A stretch of DNA of 64,000 nucleotides from an uncultured Candidatus Saccharibacteria bacterium (GTDB lineage Bacteria > Patescibacteriota > Minisyncoccia > JAHISW01 > Tagabacteraceae), in assembly GCA_964601305.1 (NCBI GenBank), contig CAZRMW010000004.1, positions 434 through 64,433 on the forward strand, given 5' to 3'. Numbering within the stretch: position 1 is the stretch's first letter; every line of letters starts with the position of its first letter. The notes below the pieces were generated by a model. It was not told the origin of the DNA and searched no databases. It saw only the letters and a program-made list of their open reading frames with translations. The translations under genes were made by a program, and so were the position numbers. This document shows, piece after piece, positions 9,389 through 64,000 of the stretch.

Positions 9389-9751
9389 ATGTCTTTTTTA
9401 GGTCTTTTGATTTTATTATGCTCTTTATCCTTAATTGTGGTTTTTTCTGTTTTGGGGATAAATATTTTTCTAATTAGAAGTCTAAGTAGAAAAGAAATCA
9501 ACGAGGGTATTGTTTCTGGCGGAAGTTTCCTTTGTGGTTTTGAAAAACAGATAGGGTTTTTTAAAAAGATTATTTTTTCTTCCGCAAATAAATTGTTGTT
9601 TTTTCTAAGCGAGATTTCTAAGAGCAAATGGTTTGAAAAGCATCTAAAGCGGTTCAATGATTATGTGAATGGTAGAGAATTGTTGGAGAGTAATGGATGC
9701 AATGGGTACTGGGGCAAAATAAAAGGAAAAATTAAAGTTAAGAAAAAGTAG
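9389..9751 (+). CDS. Small hypothetical membrane protein. Gene existence is uncertain, and the overlapping minus-strand ORF 9379..9657 is an alternative.
   Basis: It has a hydrophobic N-terminus. A GC hairpin follows the stop, gcctaccggcaggtaggc at 9756-9773. Confidence 0.25.
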   Translation: MSFLGLLILLCSLSLIVVFSVLGINIFLIRSLSRKEINEGIVSGGSFLCGFEKQIGFFKKIIFSSANKLLFFLSEISKSKWFEKHLKRFNDYVNGRELLESNGCNGYWGKIKGKIKVKKK

Positions 9752-9771
9752 TGCCAGCCTACCGGCAGGTA

Positions 9772-9835
9772 GGCCGATGTAGCCCTGCCCGCAGTCGCTA
9801 AAGCGACAGCTTTTGCAGGCGGGTCAGTTGGTTAG
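9772..9835 (+). other. Partial duplicate of the tRNA-Thr 5' region (acceptor/D-arm, GCCGATGTAGC...TCAGTTGGTTAGA) split by a 40-nt GC-rich double hairpin.
   Basis: gccgatgtagc at 9772-9782 and tcagttggttaga at 9823-9835 are identical to nt 1-11 and 12-24 of the intact tRNA at 10109. The insert cctgcccgcagtcgctaaagcgacagcttttgcaggcggg at 9783-9822 contains the GTCGC-TAAA-GCGAC hairpin. Confidence 0.55.
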
Positions 9836-9851
9836 ATCACTTTAAATTTAT

Positions 9852-10100
9852 ATGTATTTTACTTATGTGTTAGTAAGCAAAAAAGATAGTAATTTATATA
9901 TAGGTTTTTGTATTGACTTAAAGAAAAGAATGAATGAGCATAATCAAGGATTAGTCGTGAGTACAAAACACAGAAGACCGATGGAATTAATTTATTATGA
10001 AGCTTGTAAAAACAAAAAAGATGCTATAAAACGAGAGAAGGTTTTAAAAACAGGTTTTGGAAGAGTTTATTTAAAAAAGAGGAATAGTTTAGAAGATTAA
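9852..10100 (+). CDS. GIY-YIG nuclease family protein (short, UPF0213-like, homing-endonuclease-type).
   Basis: 82 aa with YFTYVL...LYIGFC...KKRMNEHNQG, a GIY-YIG motif pair. Confidence 0.7.
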   Translation: MYFTYVLVSKKDSNLYIGFCIDLKKRMNEHNQGLVVSTKHRRPMELIYYEACKNKKDAIKREKVLKTGFGRVYLKKRNSLED

Positions 10101-10108
10101 TAAAAAGT

Positions 10109-10185
10109 GCCGATGTAGCTCAGTTGGTTAGAGCAACGGTTTTGTAAACCGTAGGTCGTCAGTTCGAATCTGACCATCGGCTCCA
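10109..10185 (+). tRNA. tRNA-Thr (anticodon UGU), with CCA encoded.
   Basis: The sequence is GCCGATG TA GCTC AGTTGGTTAGAGC A ACGGT TTTGTAA ACCGT AGGTC GTCAG TTCGAATC CTGAC CATCGGC T CCA. It folds as a cloverleaf with a 7-nt anticodon loop and TGT at positions 34-36. Confidence 0.85.
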
Positions 10186-34530: not shown

Positions 34531-34935
34531 GTTCGTTTTGAGTATCATAAGCCGAATTCTGTTTTCACTAAATAGTGAATGTAGTCATTTATCTGTCGCG
34601 TTAGTTACCTAACGGATCAAGCGACACAGACTAGGCACTAGCCACTAGGGACTAGTTACTAGAATACGGTCTTGCACTTGGGTAGGAATTTAGCACGTTT
34701 CACCTCTAATATTACTATTAGAGCTCGCCCAGTCATTCGACTGGGCGATTTTATCTTTGCAGATAAAATCGTCTCTGTTCGCATCCCGTGGATTACTCCA
34801 GAAGGGTATTACCCTCTACCTTGCTGCTTTGTCTTGTTTTAACCACGCTTAGACAAAGCAAGTGTTCGGACTTTCCTCTCCGATGCTCGCCTTTGGCGAG
34901 AGCGGAGCAACTACTCAACTCAAAACTACTACAAG
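34531..34935 (-). ncRNA. rnpB: RNase P RNA (bacterial type A-like).
   Basis: On the minus strand the conserved elements appear in order. P4 5' strand GAGGAAAGTCCGAAC. P3 hairpin CTCGCCAAAGGCGAG. P8/P9 GGGTAATACCC and GGAGTAATCC. ACAGAGA junction. AGGTGAAACGTGC matches CR-III. The L15 region TAGGTAAC. AGATAAATGACT matches CR-IV. P18 hairpin. ACAGAATTCGGCTTATGA matches CR-V and completes P4. P1 pairs GTTTTGAGT with ACTCAAAAC. Confidence 0.8.
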
Positions 34936-51477: not shown

Positions 51478-51576
51478 TGCGGGTGTATAAAATAGAAGAG
51501 TAAGCAATACAAATTAAGTGGCAACGCTTTCGTTCCCAACGGGAGTATGTGGGTTCAAATCCCGCCGTCCGCTCCA
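51478..51576 (+). ncRNA. tRNA-like module with a T-arm GTGGG-TTCAAAT-CCCGC, the 3' acceptor strand CGTCCGC, discriminator T and CCA. A candidate 5' acceptor strand GCGGGTG lies at 51478. It does not fold as a canonical 76-nt tRNA.
   Basis: GGGTTCAAATCCC is a T-loop. GCGGGTG pairs with CGTCCGC using two G-U wobbles. The ~62-nt body lacks recognisable D and anticodon arms. It may be a tmRNA-type or other tRNA-like domain. Confidence 0.35.
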
Positions 51577-51595
51577 GATTTTGTAAGTTTTTTTT

Positions 51596-51706
51596 ACACA
51601 AAACCAAAACCGAATTTTTTACTTTCCCTAAATTATGATAATTTAGGAAAGTGCTCGCTTTAGGCTCACAAGCACGTAAAAAATTGTTTTGGTTTTGTGT
51701 TTTTAC
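51596..51706. repeat. ~100-nt noncoding repeat, copy 2 of 2 (the other is at 15321-15428).
   Basis: Near-identical, including the CCCTAAATTATGATAATTTAGG hairpin and CTCACAAGCACGTAAAAAATTGTTTTG. Confidence 0.8.
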
Positions 51707-51712
51707 AGCCCC

Positions 51713-51740
51713 TTGACAAGAGTTGTTATATAAGTATAAT
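51713..51740 (+). promoter_or_regulatory. Perfect consensus promoter TTGACA-16-TATAAT.
   Basis: ttgaca at 51713-51718, tataat at 51735-51740. Confidence 0.65.
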
Positions 51741-51746
51741 AGAATG

Positions 51747-52330
51747 TAGACCTTGGCAAGATGAGTTGTTCCAAATTTCACCATTTCACCGTAACTTCAG
51801 CAATGGAGGCTAAAATGGTAGGTTTTCGAATAAGTTAGGGCTTACCAGTTGACCTGACCAACTGGTGCCCACGTCGCCGGGCTAGATGCGGTTTTTCGCG
51901 GGCGGCAAGAACATAGTCAACCTTTGTATTCTAGCCCCCGGCGGCTATTGTCGGGGGCATCCTTAAAAACCTTCAAAGAACCCGATGAAAGGCGGTAAAA
52001 ATGAATTTGTTACTTTACGAGTGATAGAACTTCGCGAAGAGCAAACACACTTTTTCGAACCATACAGCGTGCGATGATCCATCCGGCAAGGCGGGGCCAT
52101 GTAGTAAACCGAGTTTTGGTACCACTGGAGGGTGTTCTCGGGGTTTGATGTAGAGGCTTGGGCGGCCAATGCATAATTCAAAACACTGACACTTTGTGGG
52201 AACTCCGCGGCAGGCGGGCACGAGGTAGGACCTCAAAAGAATCCCGACTGGGGAATAAAAAGAGTACTCAGTCTAAACAAAATTAGTCAACAAGAAAGCC
52301 TCGGGCGCAAATGCGCTCCGGGGCTTCTCT
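51747..52330 (+). ncRNA. Candidate large structured noncoding RNA of ~580 nt. It is GC-enriched and ORF-free, lies between a consensus promoter and an intrinsic terminator, and is of unknown class.
   Basis: Its GC content is far above the genome background. Multiple complementary segments are present: GCCGGGCTAG with CTAGCCCCCGGC, GCCCCCG...CGGGGGC, and ACCAGTTGACCTGACCAACTGGT. Only short spurious ORFs occur on either strand. The terminator AAGCCTCGGGCGC-AAAT-GCGCTCCGGGGCTT plus a T-run is at 52286-52330. Confidence 0.5.
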
Positions 52331-52398
52331 CTTTTGTAAATTTAAATATGCCATACTCATACGATCGTGAGAGTTTGGCATTTTCTTTTTTTAATTAA

Positions 52399-59100: not shown

Positions 59101-59198
59101 ATCAACCCAAACAGCCCGCCGCAAATTTATACCACGCCTGCAGAAGCTATGCTTCAGCATTGCGGGCAGGTATGCAGGCGGGCAAGAGCGAGGTAAAA

Positions 59199-62146: not shown

Positions 62147-63394
62147 ATGAGAATTTTTAAGTGGATAATAATAGTTTTAATATTTTTGGCTTTGGTTTTT
62201 TCTTTGTTTCTTTTTGATGTACCTTTTTTGAGTAGGGCTCTAGATAATATCGCAGGTCCTTTTTTTGCACAAAAAATTACTACTGATGAATTGAGACATA
62301 AATACGATAGGGGCAAAATTAGTGTACTTGTAGTTCCTGGGCACGACAATATTTCTACAGGAGGGCAATACAAAAGACTTCAAGAAAACGATTTGAATAT
62401 AGAGCTAGCCCAGTATCTCCACGAGTATTTTTTAGAGGATGAAAATTTTTCAGTATTTAAAACGCGCGATAGGTGGGGGAATTATAACTCTTGGTTTTTA
62501 GAGTATTTGGAAAAAGAAGGAGAATCTGTAAGCAGATTTAGAGATAGTGTTAAAAAATATATGTCTTATGTGCTGGGGGAGGGGCTTGTGGAGCGCGCCG
62601 TGAAAGTTTTTCACAATCCAGCTGCAGATAACGTGTCTTTAAATCTGTATGCAATAAACAAATGGGCAAATGACAATAATATAGATATAGTTATTCACGT
62701 CCATTTTAATGATTATCCGACGAGGTATTATGGTTGGCCAGGTAAATATTCCGGTTTTTCTATTTATGTGCCTGAGAGTCAGCTCCCAAACTCTGAGGCT
62801 AGTATAGATTTGGCAAACAATATAAGGGGGAGGCTAGAAAAATATTTTGCAAAGAGCAATTTTCCTGGAGAGGCTGATACTGTTGTGGAAGATCAGCAGC
62901 TTATTGCGGTTGGTTCTAATGCGTCTAGAGATGGAGTATCCGTTCTTGTTGAATACGGCTATATTTATGAGCCACAAATTAGAAGTAATAGTCTTAGATC
63001 TACAACAATGAAAGAGATGGCTTTTCAGACCTTTTTGGGAACAAAAGATTTTTTTAGAAAAAATTTATCTGAGGGAGATTCCCGCCCGCCATCGCAAGAC
63101 TCAGGCGTTGCGGGCGCGGCGATCTCCAACAGAACTACTTTGTTGCCGTATAAATGGGAAAATGTTTTACAAAAAGGCATTAAAGATTCTTTAGACGTAT
63201 TGCATTTGCAGGCAGCTCTCCATGAAAGTGGTTTTTATCCTCCAAAAGGGAAAACTTTGTCTAACTGCCCAATGAGTGGAAATTTTGGAAATTGTACTTG
63301 GGAGGCGGTGTGTGAATTTCAGAAAAAATATGATTTGGGCTGCGTTGGCGTCGTAGGCCCAAATACACTTGAAAAGTTAAATGAGTTATATTAA
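62147..63394 (+). CDS. N-acetylmuramoyl-L-alanine amidase (Amidase_3-like) with a C-terminal peptidoglycan-binding domain.
   Basis: N-terminal TM. VVPGHDNISTGGQ...ELAQYL...IVIHVHFNDYP...GFSIYVP. The C-terminal LHLQAALHESGFYP...VGPNTLEKL is PG_binding_1-like. Confidence 0.6.
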   Translation: MRIFKWIIIVLIFLALVFSLFLFDVPFLSRALDNIAGPFFAQKITTDELRHKYDRGKISVLVVPGHDNISTGGQYKRLQENDLNIELAQYLHEYFLEDENFSVFKTRDRWGNYNSWFLEYLEKEGESVSRFRDSVKKYMSYVLGEGLVERAVKVFHNPAADNVSLNLYAINKWANDNNIDIVIHVHFNDYPTRYYGWPGKYSGFSIYVPESQLPNSEASIDLANNIRGRLEKYFAKSNFPGEADTVVEDQQLIAVGSNASRDGVSVLVEYGYIYEPQIRSNSLRSTTMKEMAFQTFLGTKDFFRKNLSEGDSRPPSQDSGVAGAAISNRTTLLPYKWENVLQKGIKDSLDVLHLQAALHESGFYPPKGKTLSNCPMSGNFGNCTWEAVCEFQKKYDLGCVGVVGPNTLEKLNELY

Positions 63395-63403
63395 TTTGCT
63401 TGA

Positions 63404-63710
63404 CTTTTTATTTTTATAGAATACAATTATTTGTACTAATAGATTATGTCTATTAGTTGTTTTTTGAGAACTGAATTAAGAGAAACACAATTTGTGCAAC
63501 AAATATTTTTTAACACATCATAATATCTTTTATTTTGTTCCGTTCTGATCTTACTCACGAATGAAGTGAGTGATTTGTAAGATCTGAACCCCGAGATAAA
63601 TTCTTAGAATTTATTTTTCGGGGTTCGTATTATTGCCACGAAAAATGAAATTATTTAAATAATTTCATCTCGTGGCTCTAATAAATACAATCACGATCCT
63701 CGTGAGTATT
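63404..63710 (+). promoter_or_regulatory. rRNA operon promoter and 16S leader. It contains several long hairpins that are likely processing stems.
   Basis: TTGACT-like box at ~63404. Hairpins GATCTTACTCAC...GTGAGTGATTTGTAAGATC, CCCCGAGATAAATTCT-TAG-AATTTATTTTTCGGGG and CCACGAAAAATGAAATTATT-TAA-ATAATTTCATCTCGTGG. Confidence 0.5.
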
Positions 63711-64000
63711 TATTGAGAGTTTGATCCTAGCTCAGGATGAACGCTGGCGACGTGGATAAGGCATGCAAGTCAAGGGGGTTTAATTTATTAAACAACCGGC
63801 AAACGGGGTAGTAACACGTAGGAATCTGCCCTAATCTCGGGAATAACCCATCGAAAGATGGACTAATACCCGATAGTCCCTTCGGGGTAAAGGTGCTCTT
63901 CGGAGTTTCCGGATTAGGATGAGCCTGCGGGCTATCAGCTTGTTGGTGGGGTAAAAGCCCACCAAGGCGATGACGGCTAGGGGAGGTGAGAGCCTGACCC
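63711..64000 (+). rRNA. rrs: 16S ribosomal RNA, 5' portion. It continues beyond the window end.
   Basis: The sequence begins TTGAGAGTTTGATCCTAGCTCAGGATGAACGCTGGCG, the universal 5' end and 27F site. GC rises downstream, and conserved helices such as ACACGTAGGAATCTGCC follow. Confidence 0.9.

Follow-up and report, generated by a model that had tools for sequence, protein, structure and literature searches.

A 64-kb stretch of contig CAZRMW010000004.1 (GenBank assembly GCA_964601305.1), hereafter called the window, carries a gene for an 82-residue GIY-YIG nuclease between an intact tRNA-Thr(UGU) gene and a split copy of the 5΄ part of that gene. Judged by comparison with related genomes, positions 9750–10108 are a derived insertion of ~359 nucleotides (nt) in the 5΄ portion of this tRNA gene, and we interpret the inserted unit as a miniature selfish element composed of the nuclease gene and a cognate GC-rich imperfect palindrome. 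It is probable, at roughly 0.8, that this nuclease-plus-palindrome unit is a small mobile element that inserts at the 5΄ ends of RNA genes and makes a duplicate of each target, by a mode of movement that we infer from sequence. The host is placed, by its gene content and closest relatives, among the Patescibacteria, or candidate-phyla bacteria, and the window is AT-rich (GC content, 35%).

The only tRNA gene in the 64 kb, called by both ARAGORN and Rfam (76.9 bits), is the complete tRNA-Thr(UGU) gene at 10109–10185 on the plus strand, which we regard as the regenerated target. Its nt 1–11 (GCCGATGTAGC) are found at 9773–9783 and at 10109–10119, and its nt 12–24 (TCAGTTGGTTAGA) at 9824–9836 and at 10120–10132; each segment occurs exactly twice in the window, compared with ~0 occurrences expected from shuffled sequences. 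A preliminary description of this stretch had noted that the first 24 nt recur upstream, which is confirmed; however, the start-to-start spacing is 336 nt rather than 337 nt, and the duplicate extends beyond 24 nt. The upstream copy of nt 12–27 (TCAGTTGGTTAGAtCA; 9824–9839, plus strand) reaches tRNA position 27 with one mismatch (TAGAtCA versus TAGAgCA), and 12 nt of the 5΄ leader are also duplicated (TTAAgAAAAAGT at 9738–9749 versus TTAAtAAAAAGT at 10097–10108, with 11 of the 12 positions equal), giving a whole duplicate of ~39 bp, from leader position –12 to tRNA position +27. On the plus strand, the upstream leader copy (TTAAGAAAAAGT) doubles as the 3΄ end of an upstream open reading frame (ORF) of 120 codons, for which a homologue search returned only the ORF itself, and the downstream leader copy (TTAATAAAAAGT) overlaps the last codon and the stop codon of the nuclease ORF. 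Neither ARAGORN nor Rfam called a tRNA in the upstream copy, whose left half (9773–9783, plus strand) we treat as part of a dead fragment; Rfam had no match to the palindrome within it either.

A 40-nt GC-rich imperfect palindrome (CCTGCCCGC...GCAGGCGGG; 9784–9823, no strand assigned), lying in the orientation that we designate R, breaks the upstream copy between tRNA positions 11 and 12, where the D-stem meets the D-loop. An interruption after position 11 had been described as a 40-nt double hairpin at 9783–9822; the structure stands, the coordinates shift one base to the right, and the block is better understood as a member of a conserved palindrome family that occurs with or without the nuclease gene. 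A second, smaller GC-rich palindromic insert of ~23 nt (AGTGCCAGCCTACCGGCAGGTAG; 9750–9772, no strand assigned), which folds into a hairpin with the stem CCTACC/GGTAGG and is unique in the window, separates the upstream leader copy from the upstream tRNA copy and is missing downstream (AAAAAGT/GCCGATG). Repeats of AGT and GCC at the edges of this smaller insert leave its precise limits ambiguous. This type of palindrome (CCTACCGGCAGGTAGG) thus stands at the 5΄ edge of the dead tRNA fragment, and a similar one (CCTGCCTGCCGGCAGGCAGG) is found 3΄ of the tRNA in a related locus (L017). The stretch 9745–9850 folds more stably than its shuffles (z = –4.3). An AT-rich spacer of 12 nt (9840–9851, plus strand, by direct reading), the equivalent of which is not conserved from locus to locus, precedes the start codon of the nuclease gene (9852–10100, plus strand), which lies, as previously described, between the fragment and the intact tRNA gene. 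The conserved core of the nuclease ends ...YLKKRN, its last codons and TAA stop are inside the duplicated leader, and the intact tRNA-Thr gene starts 8 nt after the stop codon.

Relatives of this locus were identified through homologues of the downstream NusB-NUDIX fusion protein in a protein database, and the corresponding contigs were then retrieved; a metagenome scan with the NusB-NUDIX protein found nothing. Six relatives, 67–76% identical in this protein, share the gene order rpsB, tsf, a small membrane ORF, tRNA-Thr(UGU), rpmF and nusB-nudix. At the tRNA-Thr site, none of the six (L099, L101/L102, L103, L105, L106 and L107) contains the GIY-YIG gene, the palindrome or the matching tRNA duplicate; the site is thus unoccupied in these genomes and occupied in the window, which has ~359 extra nt in alignment A2. 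The tRNA-Thr genes of L099 and L101 are identical to that of the window through nt 73 and abut the stop codon of the upstream ORF (...aaaTAA/GCCGATG and ...cttTAA/GCCGATG). Because the six syntenic relatives have the tRNA-Thr gene without gene, palindrome or duplicate, we consider the insertion in the window to be derived. Comparison of related tRNA-Thr loci had been recommended in the preliminary description, as had attention to two adverse outcomes; the relatives show no conserved tandem tRNA array without the endonuclease, and the match to the tRNA 5΄ end is not one of low-complexity sequence. In L106 (1063–1200), a 5΄ fragment of tRNA-Thr(UGU) (nt 1–36, GCCAGGA type) precedes a different, complete tRNA-Thr (GCTGGAG type) that is bracketed by an inverted repeat (CCCCGTTAGAG / CTCTAACGGGG); no GIY-YIG gene is present there, and the arrangement looks like a tRNA replacement event.

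The arrangement recurs at many other RNA genes. A scan of one genome per GTDB species yielded at least 582 relatives of the window nuclease, and relatives at 50–77% identity were found in Paceibacterota, Gottesmanbacteria, Buchananbacteria and others. A phage-borne element was considered and rejected, since only 1 relative was found among 2.9 million viral contigs and the nuclease had no match in PHROGs. We computed locus statistics for 80 related loci, labelled with L-numbers. A first hairpin finder and a gapped aligner with zero extension cost gave spurious small blocks; junctions were instead mapped by motif-anchored, exact-run matching. A tRNA gene on the same strand starts within 25 nt of the nuclease stop codon in 39 of the 80 loci and within 130 nt in 11 more, whereas by a rough estimate ~0.1 of 80 would have a close same-strand tRNA by chance. 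The target tRNAs represent 14 identities (Gln, Lys, Ile, Thr, Met, Phe, His, Asn, Arg, Val, Pro, Glu, Leu and Ala). Transfer-messenger RNA (tmRNA) is also a target: the nuclease gene precedes tmRNA in L065 and L079, and in two abundant lineages it has smpB on one side and, on the other, the gap left for ssrA, which is the tmRNA gene. The element is always co-oriented with its RNA-gene target.

In 40 loci, the window included, the order reads tRNA[–x..k], palindrome, tRNA[k+1..m], then the ORF and the intact tRNA, and the upstream fragment usually equals the downstream tRNA of the same locus. The split position k is mostly 9–21, with junctions (for example, TA^GCTC, TAGC^TCAG, GG^TA and GGTA^GAGC) every one of which lies within the D-arm or at one of its edges. 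Across loci, m ranges from 14 to 32, and the leader length x is at most ~13, with a median of 1. The duplicate measures 15–40 bp in ~40 loci (median ~24 nt by a strict measure, reaching 36–40 nt). The ORF has a conserved end, ...RR(L/I), which often runs straight into the stop codon and is followed by 0–18 nt before the tRNA. The identity of the tRNA is scattered over the nuclease protein tree, and the palindrome subtype roughly follows the tree. Units may also be serial at one tRNA: L038 and L051 contain fragment-palindrome-ORF, then fragment-palindrome, then the intact tRNA. The six empty sites, together with ~40 parallel cases in which the duplicate usually matches the local tRNA, support a mobile insertion with target duplication, and these comparisons indicate that the family moves among RNA genes with a new, target-specific duplication each time. 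An insertion that duplicated part of its tRNA target, of either a homing-endonuclease or an integrative kind, had been suggested earlier; the mobile insertion is supported, whereas the integrase type and the classical I-TevI/Seg type are not, for reasons given below.

Variants of the arrangement were also found. Serial units are also present in L016, L023 and L039, where a second GIY-YIG subfamily with its own, different hairpin shares the tRNA. This subfamily matches the A1 profile at E = 1e-12 to 1e-15, with hairpins such as CCCCGATTAAATCGGGG and TCGCCTCATCGGCGA, and its sites are tRNA D-loops (on the 5΄ side in L016, L023 and L039) or tRNA 3΄ ends; a further instance is in L013 (~2901). At tRNA 3΄ ends (L037, ~2917; L043, ~2942), it duplicates the 3΄ part of the tRNA. 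In L077 and L081, relatives of the window nuclease lie at the 5΄ ends of protein genes, with duplications of 35–41 nt that have the ATG as their first codon. In L053, L077 and L081, the ORF has a palindrome arm on either side, resembling terminal inverted repeats, whereas in the window and most tRNA loci both arms are joined in one palindrome upstream of the ORF. A clade of 84–86 residues from phyla other than the candidate phyla, namely Desulfobacterota, Planctomycetota, Verrucomicrobiota, Cloacimonadota and others (L030, L033, L048, L052, L054, L061, L072, L075, L080, L084 and other loci) is bounded by 15-nt inverted repeats (TTTACCCnGTTAAATA ... TATTTAACnGGGTAAA) and has neither the GC-rich palindrome nor a tRNA. 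One member of this clade, in L030, appears to interrupt a gene resembling that of the four-helix-bundle (‘23S rRNA intervening sequence’) protein, as judged by eye from the translation. In L021 (2416–2900), the order is tRNA-Ala, GIY-YIG gene, palindrome; since the sequence beyond resembles the 5΄ end of 23S rRNA by eye, this element would sit in an rRNA operon spacer.

We next consider the palindrome. Whether the hairpin occurs elsewhere in the window, a question raised in the preliminary description, depends on the level of comparison: the block at 9784–9823 is unique at up to three mismatches, and its family has three copies (at 9784, 59133 and 63081). The family motif CC[CT]GCC[CT]GC ... 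GC[AG]GGC[AG]GG occurs 64 times in ~375 kb of loci, and 58 of these 64 occurrences are at most 62 nt from the ORF. Two orientations relative to the ORF exist, one the exact reverse complement of the other: when reverse-complemented, the L057 copy gives the 36-mer of L032, L036 and L037, the window palindrome is the reverse orientation of an L028-like sequence, and the reverse complement of 9784–9823 aligns with the family (alignment A3). This alignment displays an invariant outer stem, with a conserved C·A mismatch and a conserved U·G pair, and two overlapping inner stems that are mirror images of each other. Compensatory double changes in the inner stems amounted to 22 and 18 sequence-by-pair cells, compared with 6.9 and 4.0 in shuffles, and none of 500 shuffles reached the observed values. 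A simple in-register hairpin is therefore only partly true, because the compensatory changes back the two overlapping, mirrored stems. Because both strands fold alike and both orientations occur, the conserved structure points to a signal that acts at the level of DNA rather than RNA.

The palindrome is not confined to the nuclease gene. One exact 36-mer was found in at least 120 metagenome contigs with GC contents of 33–62%; of the 81 copies analyzed, 76 have no GIY-YIG gene within 700 nt, and only ~5 adjoin tRNA-like sequence. Many dispersed, gene-less copies and a conserved palindromic structure, the features of miniature inverted-repeat transposable elements (MITEs) and of repetitive extragenic palindromic (REP) sequences, are thus found for the 40-nt block, and this distribution indicates that the palindrome also spreads by itself, as a MITE-like partner that is present in far greater numbers. 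Insertion of the palindrome with a short target duplication of its own was rejected, given that an exact repeat of at least 4 nt flanks 2 of the 76 solo copies, the same as in a shifted control. Because solo palindromes are rarely in tRNA sequence, independent insertion cannot explain the near-constant position of the palindrome in the dead tRNA fragment beside the ORF: either the palindrome and the nuclease gene come as one unit, or the nuclease prefers to act next to the gene that encodes it.

Several further observations concern palindrome copies in other contexts. Identical 36-nt palindromes (L108–L187) often lie in arrays of 7–8 nt tandem repeats (for example, CATCCAA, GGAATTT and GGATAATT). 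Palindromes are also nested, both within the loops of other palindromes and in an unrelated repeated hairpin (GTCATTCCCG...CGGGAAT), as in L019 (2414–2485), L039 (2423–2491), L047 (2406–2459), L161 and L167, which suggests that hairpin loops are preferred insertion sites of palindromes. Within the window, the copy at 63081–63118 (CCCGCCCGCCATCGCAAGACTCAGGCGTTGCGGGCGCG) is in frame inside an amidase-like ORF (62147–63394), to which it adds a GC-rich peptide (...SRPPSQDSGVAGAA...); its flanks, GGAGAT and ATCTCC, lengthen the inverted repeat, and the arrangement resembles that of Rickettsia palindromic elements within coding genes. The copy at 59133–59170 (CACGCCTGCAGAAGCTATGCTTCAGCATTGCGGGCAGG) is followed by a partial extra arm (TATGCAGGCGGGCAAG) extending to 59185 and is located just 5΄ of the likely start of a leucyl aminopeptidase gene (ATG at ~59200).

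The 82-residue protein matches the GIY-YIG family of Pfam (PF01541) over residues 1–71 with 62.2 bits (cut-off 22.6; E = 5.7e-17). Across 25 homologues, four residues (Y5, Y16, G18 and E62) never vary, and two more (R26 and H30) reach at least 90% conservation; by analogy with I-TevI and UvrC, we take Y5 to be the GIY tyrosine, Y16/G18 the Tyr-x-Gly of YIG, R26 the arginine and E62 the metal-binding glutamate. The AlphaFold2 model (mean predicted local distance difference test score, 91.3; order of strands, E, and helices, H: E-E-H-E-H-H) has the three-stranded sheet and flanking helices of the GIY-YIG fold, and its top Foldseek matches are GIY-YIG proteins. By sequence, the best PDB matches are 1zg2 (E = 2.5e-8) and 1ywl (E = 4.8e-6), followed by Slx1, I-TevI (0.009) and UvrC (0.4). 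By fold, the model is closest to 1zg2, then to Slx1 (6sei_C; root-mean-square deviation 2.1 Å over 72 columns) and then to I-TevI. On sequence and predicted structure, the protein is thus assigned to the Slx1/UPF0213 branch, of which it is a minimal representative, and not to that of UvrC or I-TevI. No DNA-binding or other extra domain was found with Pfam, NCBIfam or PHROGs, NCBIfam giving only a sub-threshold match to a group I intron endonuclease model. A promoter scan found no convincing promoter dedicated to the nuclease ORF.

These features can be combined into a possible mechanism. The nuclease may be structure-specific, as is Slx1, nicking stem-loops such as those of its own palindrome and of the D-arm or acceptor base of a folded tRNA gene. 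Nicks on opposite strands, 25–40 nt apart and followed by fill-in, would produce the long and variable duplication. The downstream copy continues into a complete, functional tRNA gene; the upstream copy is left as a dead 5΄ fragment, with the palindrome interrupting it at the D-arm. As tRNAs are essential, survivors would be expected only where the duplication reaches the end of the gene; we propose that insertions are near the 5΄ end (or the 3΄ end in the other subfamily), and never mid-gene, because selection keeps such duplications. The ORF, which lacks an evident promoter, would presumably be expressed by read-through from the host transcription unit, after which RNase P would free the tRNA.

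A more specific proposal, which we advance tentatively, is that these elements constitute a new class of prokaryotic DNA transposon with a minimal Slx1-like GIY-YIG nuclease as its sole protein and a cognate imperfect palindrome. The nuclease would nick the palindrome hairpin extruded on either strand, as well as tRNA and tmRNA genes at their folded D-arm or acceptor base. On its own, the palindrome would move as a single-stranded hairpin pasted into nicks, which would explain its lack of duplication, two orientations and nesting. The ORF-bearing form would enter the 5΄ ends of highly expressed RNA genes, where the 25–40 bp duplication would rebuild the gene and place the nuclease under a host promoter. 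The identical 36-nt palindromes in genomes with GC contents of 33–62% would then be cross-phylum MITEs of the element.

Several points weigh against the mobile element outlined above. The palindrome is inside the left duplicate and not at an end of the insert, which simple staggered-cut duplication does not account for. The left edge of the duplicate clusters at approximately +1 of the tRNA (median x = 1), where random staggered cuts followed by selection would give a wider spread. Two explanations of the duplicate ends were considered: a start at the transcription start site (an R-loop or bubble model) was rejected because –10 boxes lie 9–18 nt upstream of +1 (L013, L019, L025, L036, L069 and L073), and a fixed-length duplication filtered by selection was weakly supported (correlation of x with m, –0.15). 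The fragment in L006 (GCCGGAG...) is unlike its downstream tRNA (GCCACCC...). Elements at different tRNAs were at best 77% identical in nucleotide sequence; in the absence of a near-identical pair among the loci, the exact ends of the mobile unit are not defined. Four Microgenomates-type genomes have the element at one and the same position of tRNA-Gln(CUG), a pattern equally compatible with vertical descent and with repeated insertion. In addition, bacterial Slx1-like proteins are held to be mostly vertically inherited (Dunin-Horkawicz et al. 2006, PMC1564403), and some factor other than the GIY-YIG nuclease might mobilize the element.

Among the alternatives, the one that survives best, although we consider it unlikely, is a classical free-standing homing endonuclease gene, such as T4 SegB, which would cut ORF-less alleles of the same tRNA gene and be copied by double-strand-break repair, the duplication having occurred once per lineage and been inherited with the cassette. 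The GIY-YIG domain fits this explanation, as do the occupied and unoccupied alleles of the same site in related genomes, the shared tRNA-Gln(CUG) position in L019, L025, L037 and L039, and the mismatch in L006, a sign that recombination may carry fragment, palindrome and ORF together as one block. Indeed, SegB is located in, and cleaves within, the T4 tRNA gene cluster (PMC2330249). However, homing to one cognate allele is difficult to reconcile with sites that comprise 14 tRNA identities, tmRNA and two protein genes, with a duplicate that nearly always matches the local target, or with the scatter of tRNA identities over the protein tree. The protein has no DNA-binding domain and a predicted fold closer to Slx1/UPF0213 than to I-TevI, and break-repair copying between tRNA species would give chimeric tRNAs with mismatched acceptor stems. 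Allelic homing following an initial transposition is possible.

The gene could also be a domesticated host gene for DNA repair or RNA metabolism that is merely co-transcribed with tRNAs, the fragment being an old tandem duplication and the palindrome an unrelated MITE in dispensable DNA. In its favor, the palindrome is mostly solo (76 of 81 copies) and found in genomes of very different GC content, and Slx1-like proteins, one of which is fused to the tRNA Gm18 methyltransferase TrmH, have been judged mostly vertical (PMC1564403). We nevertheless regard this as highly unlikely, given that all six syntenic relatives lack the gene, the palindrome and the matching duplicate together, and that the ORF is always exactly between the fragment and the intact gene. 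Also against it are the proximity of 58 of 64 palindromes to the ORF, compared with the ~5 of 81 solo ones near tRNA-like sequence, the 60–70% identical proteins in unrelated phyla and the serial arrays at single tRNAs.

An integrase-type integrative element, or its remnant, with an attachment site carrying the tRNA 5΄ part, has hardly any chance of being correct. Partial-tRNA direct repeats around inserted DNA are a hallmark of tRNA-targeting islands, but such islands normally duplicate the 3΄ part of the tRNA, and here the insert of ~359 nt encodes one 82-residue ORF, with the same tiny architecture at 14 tRNA identities. We exclude this type because no tyrosine or serine recombinase gene lies within the duplicated boundaries. 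Similarly negligible is the idea of an RNA-level feature, namely a split or intron-containing tRNA or, as the preliminary description had allowed, a decayed tRNA copy with an intron-like insertion: although the insert is found within a recognizable 5΄ portion of a tRNA, in a stretch with a stable fold, the tRNA downstream is complete, the fragment goes no further than position 27 and has no partner 3΄ half, the relatives have a single tRNA at the site, no intron or ribozyme of Rfam matches at E values of up to 10, and the palindrome occurs in both orientations with strands that fold alike.

The design of this element, recurrent across candidate-phyla bacteria, seems not to have been described previously. 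In the full-text literature searched, GIY-YIG genes or palindromes at the 5΄ ends of tRNAs are not described; since this literature leaves out most subscription journals, an earlier description may exist. To our knowledge, no established prokaryotic transposon relies on a GIY-YIG enzyme, and there is a substantial chance that these elements represent a new transposon class. If so, a nuclease-only mobile element of ~0.3 kb would join the short list of routes by which bacterial DNA moves, and the large, uncharacterized bacterial Slx1/UPF0213 family would gain a biological role. The element also shows how a parasite can live in essential, single-copy genes for tRNA and tmRNA in candidate-phyla bacteria, whose genomes are very small, and spare its host: it rebuilds the 5΄ end of the gene and apparently borrows host transcription. 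For annotation, such elements would explain many stray tRNA 5΄ fragments and ‘GIY-YIG family protein’ calls, as well as GC-rich peptide inserts in AT-rich genes such as the amidase gene of the window. The palindrome and nuclease form a small pair that could easily be tested in vitro.

Other features of the window are as follows. A sequence resembling the 3΄ end of a tRNA, with T-arm, acceptor strand and CCA (GGGTTCAAATCCCGCCGTCCGCTCCA), is present at 51535–51577, with no 5΄ half called by ARAGORN; its sole Rfam match is a weak one to a tmRNA 3΄ end (11.5 bits). On its 3΄ side, at 51838–52340, is an unannotated GC-rich region of ~500 nt that appears to be structured. The feature at 51535–52340 may represent a tmRNA of unusual or permuted form or, alternatively, the 3΄ fragment of a tRNA. 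Further landmarks are a class A RNase P RNA at 34531–34926 on the minus strand (106.7 bits; threshold, 100) and the start of a 16S rRNA gene at 63709–64000.

Finally, we compared the element with known systems. The Slx1/UPF0213 branch is the minimal stand-alone form of the GIY-YIG domain and has no assigned function (Dunin-Horkawicz et al. 2006, PMC1564403). The UPF0213 proteins BH0048 (1zg2) and EF2693 (1ywl), the best sequence and fold matches, are likewise minimal domains of ~80–100 residues without an accessory domain; they differ in that no mobile context, link to tRNA genes or palindromes have been described for them (PMC1564403), and they are ~27% identical to the window protein. The T4 Seg proteins, especially SegB, and I-TevI are encoded, like the window protein, by selfish GIY-YIG genes among or next to tRNA genes whose presence varies between genomes. 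However, they have 200–250 residues with DNA-binding domains and rely on allelic double-strand-break repair, with neither a long target duplication nor a palindrome, whereas the window-type element encodes 82 residues and has many targets rather than one cognate site, with a duplicate that usually matches the local target. Eukaryotic Slx1 cuts branched and stem-loop DNA.

The likeness to REP sequences with their associated tyrosine transposases (RAYTs), to Rickettsia palindromic elements and to MITEs lies in short, scattered, imperfect palindromes, some of them in frame in protein genes, and in a single nuclease gene that nearly always has a palindrome copy beside it; RAYT, however, is an HUH/Y1 enzyme and not a GIY-YIG enzyme, and REPs are tied neither to tRNA 5΄ ends nor to gene-regenerating duplications. 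The ‘peel and paste’ elements of the IS200/IS605 family similarly use hairpin DNA signals, with structure prevailing over sequence, and the solo palindromes likewise insert without target duplication; the IS200/IS605 elements differ in having a tyrosine HUH transposase, a covalent intermediate and fixed tetra- or pentanucleotide targets, with no 25–40 bp duplication. The direct target duplication that flanks the insert (39 bp here) is a feature of insertion sequences in general, but bacterial insertion sequences typically duplicate 2–14 bp, and that of the element is much longer. A precedent for variable length is the GIY-YIG nickase of Penelope-like elements, in which two nicks at a variable distance result in target duplications of variable length (PMC8557442); these elements are eukaryotic and require a reverse transcriptase, none of which is present in the window element. 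Islands and prophages that target tRNA genes also insert in the gene, duplicate part of it and keep one intact copy, but they are kilobases in length, depend on an integrase and usually duplicate the 3΄ part, in contrast to the ~360 bp, lack of a recombinase and 5΄ part observed here. The element resembles in part a free-standing homing endonuclease gene, such as T4 SegB, and in part a REP/RAYT or MITE pair, but it lacks features that define the known systems: the DNA-binding domain and single target of a homing endonuclease gene, the HUH-type nuclease of REP/RAYT and IS200/IS605, and the recombinase of tRNA-integrating islands.

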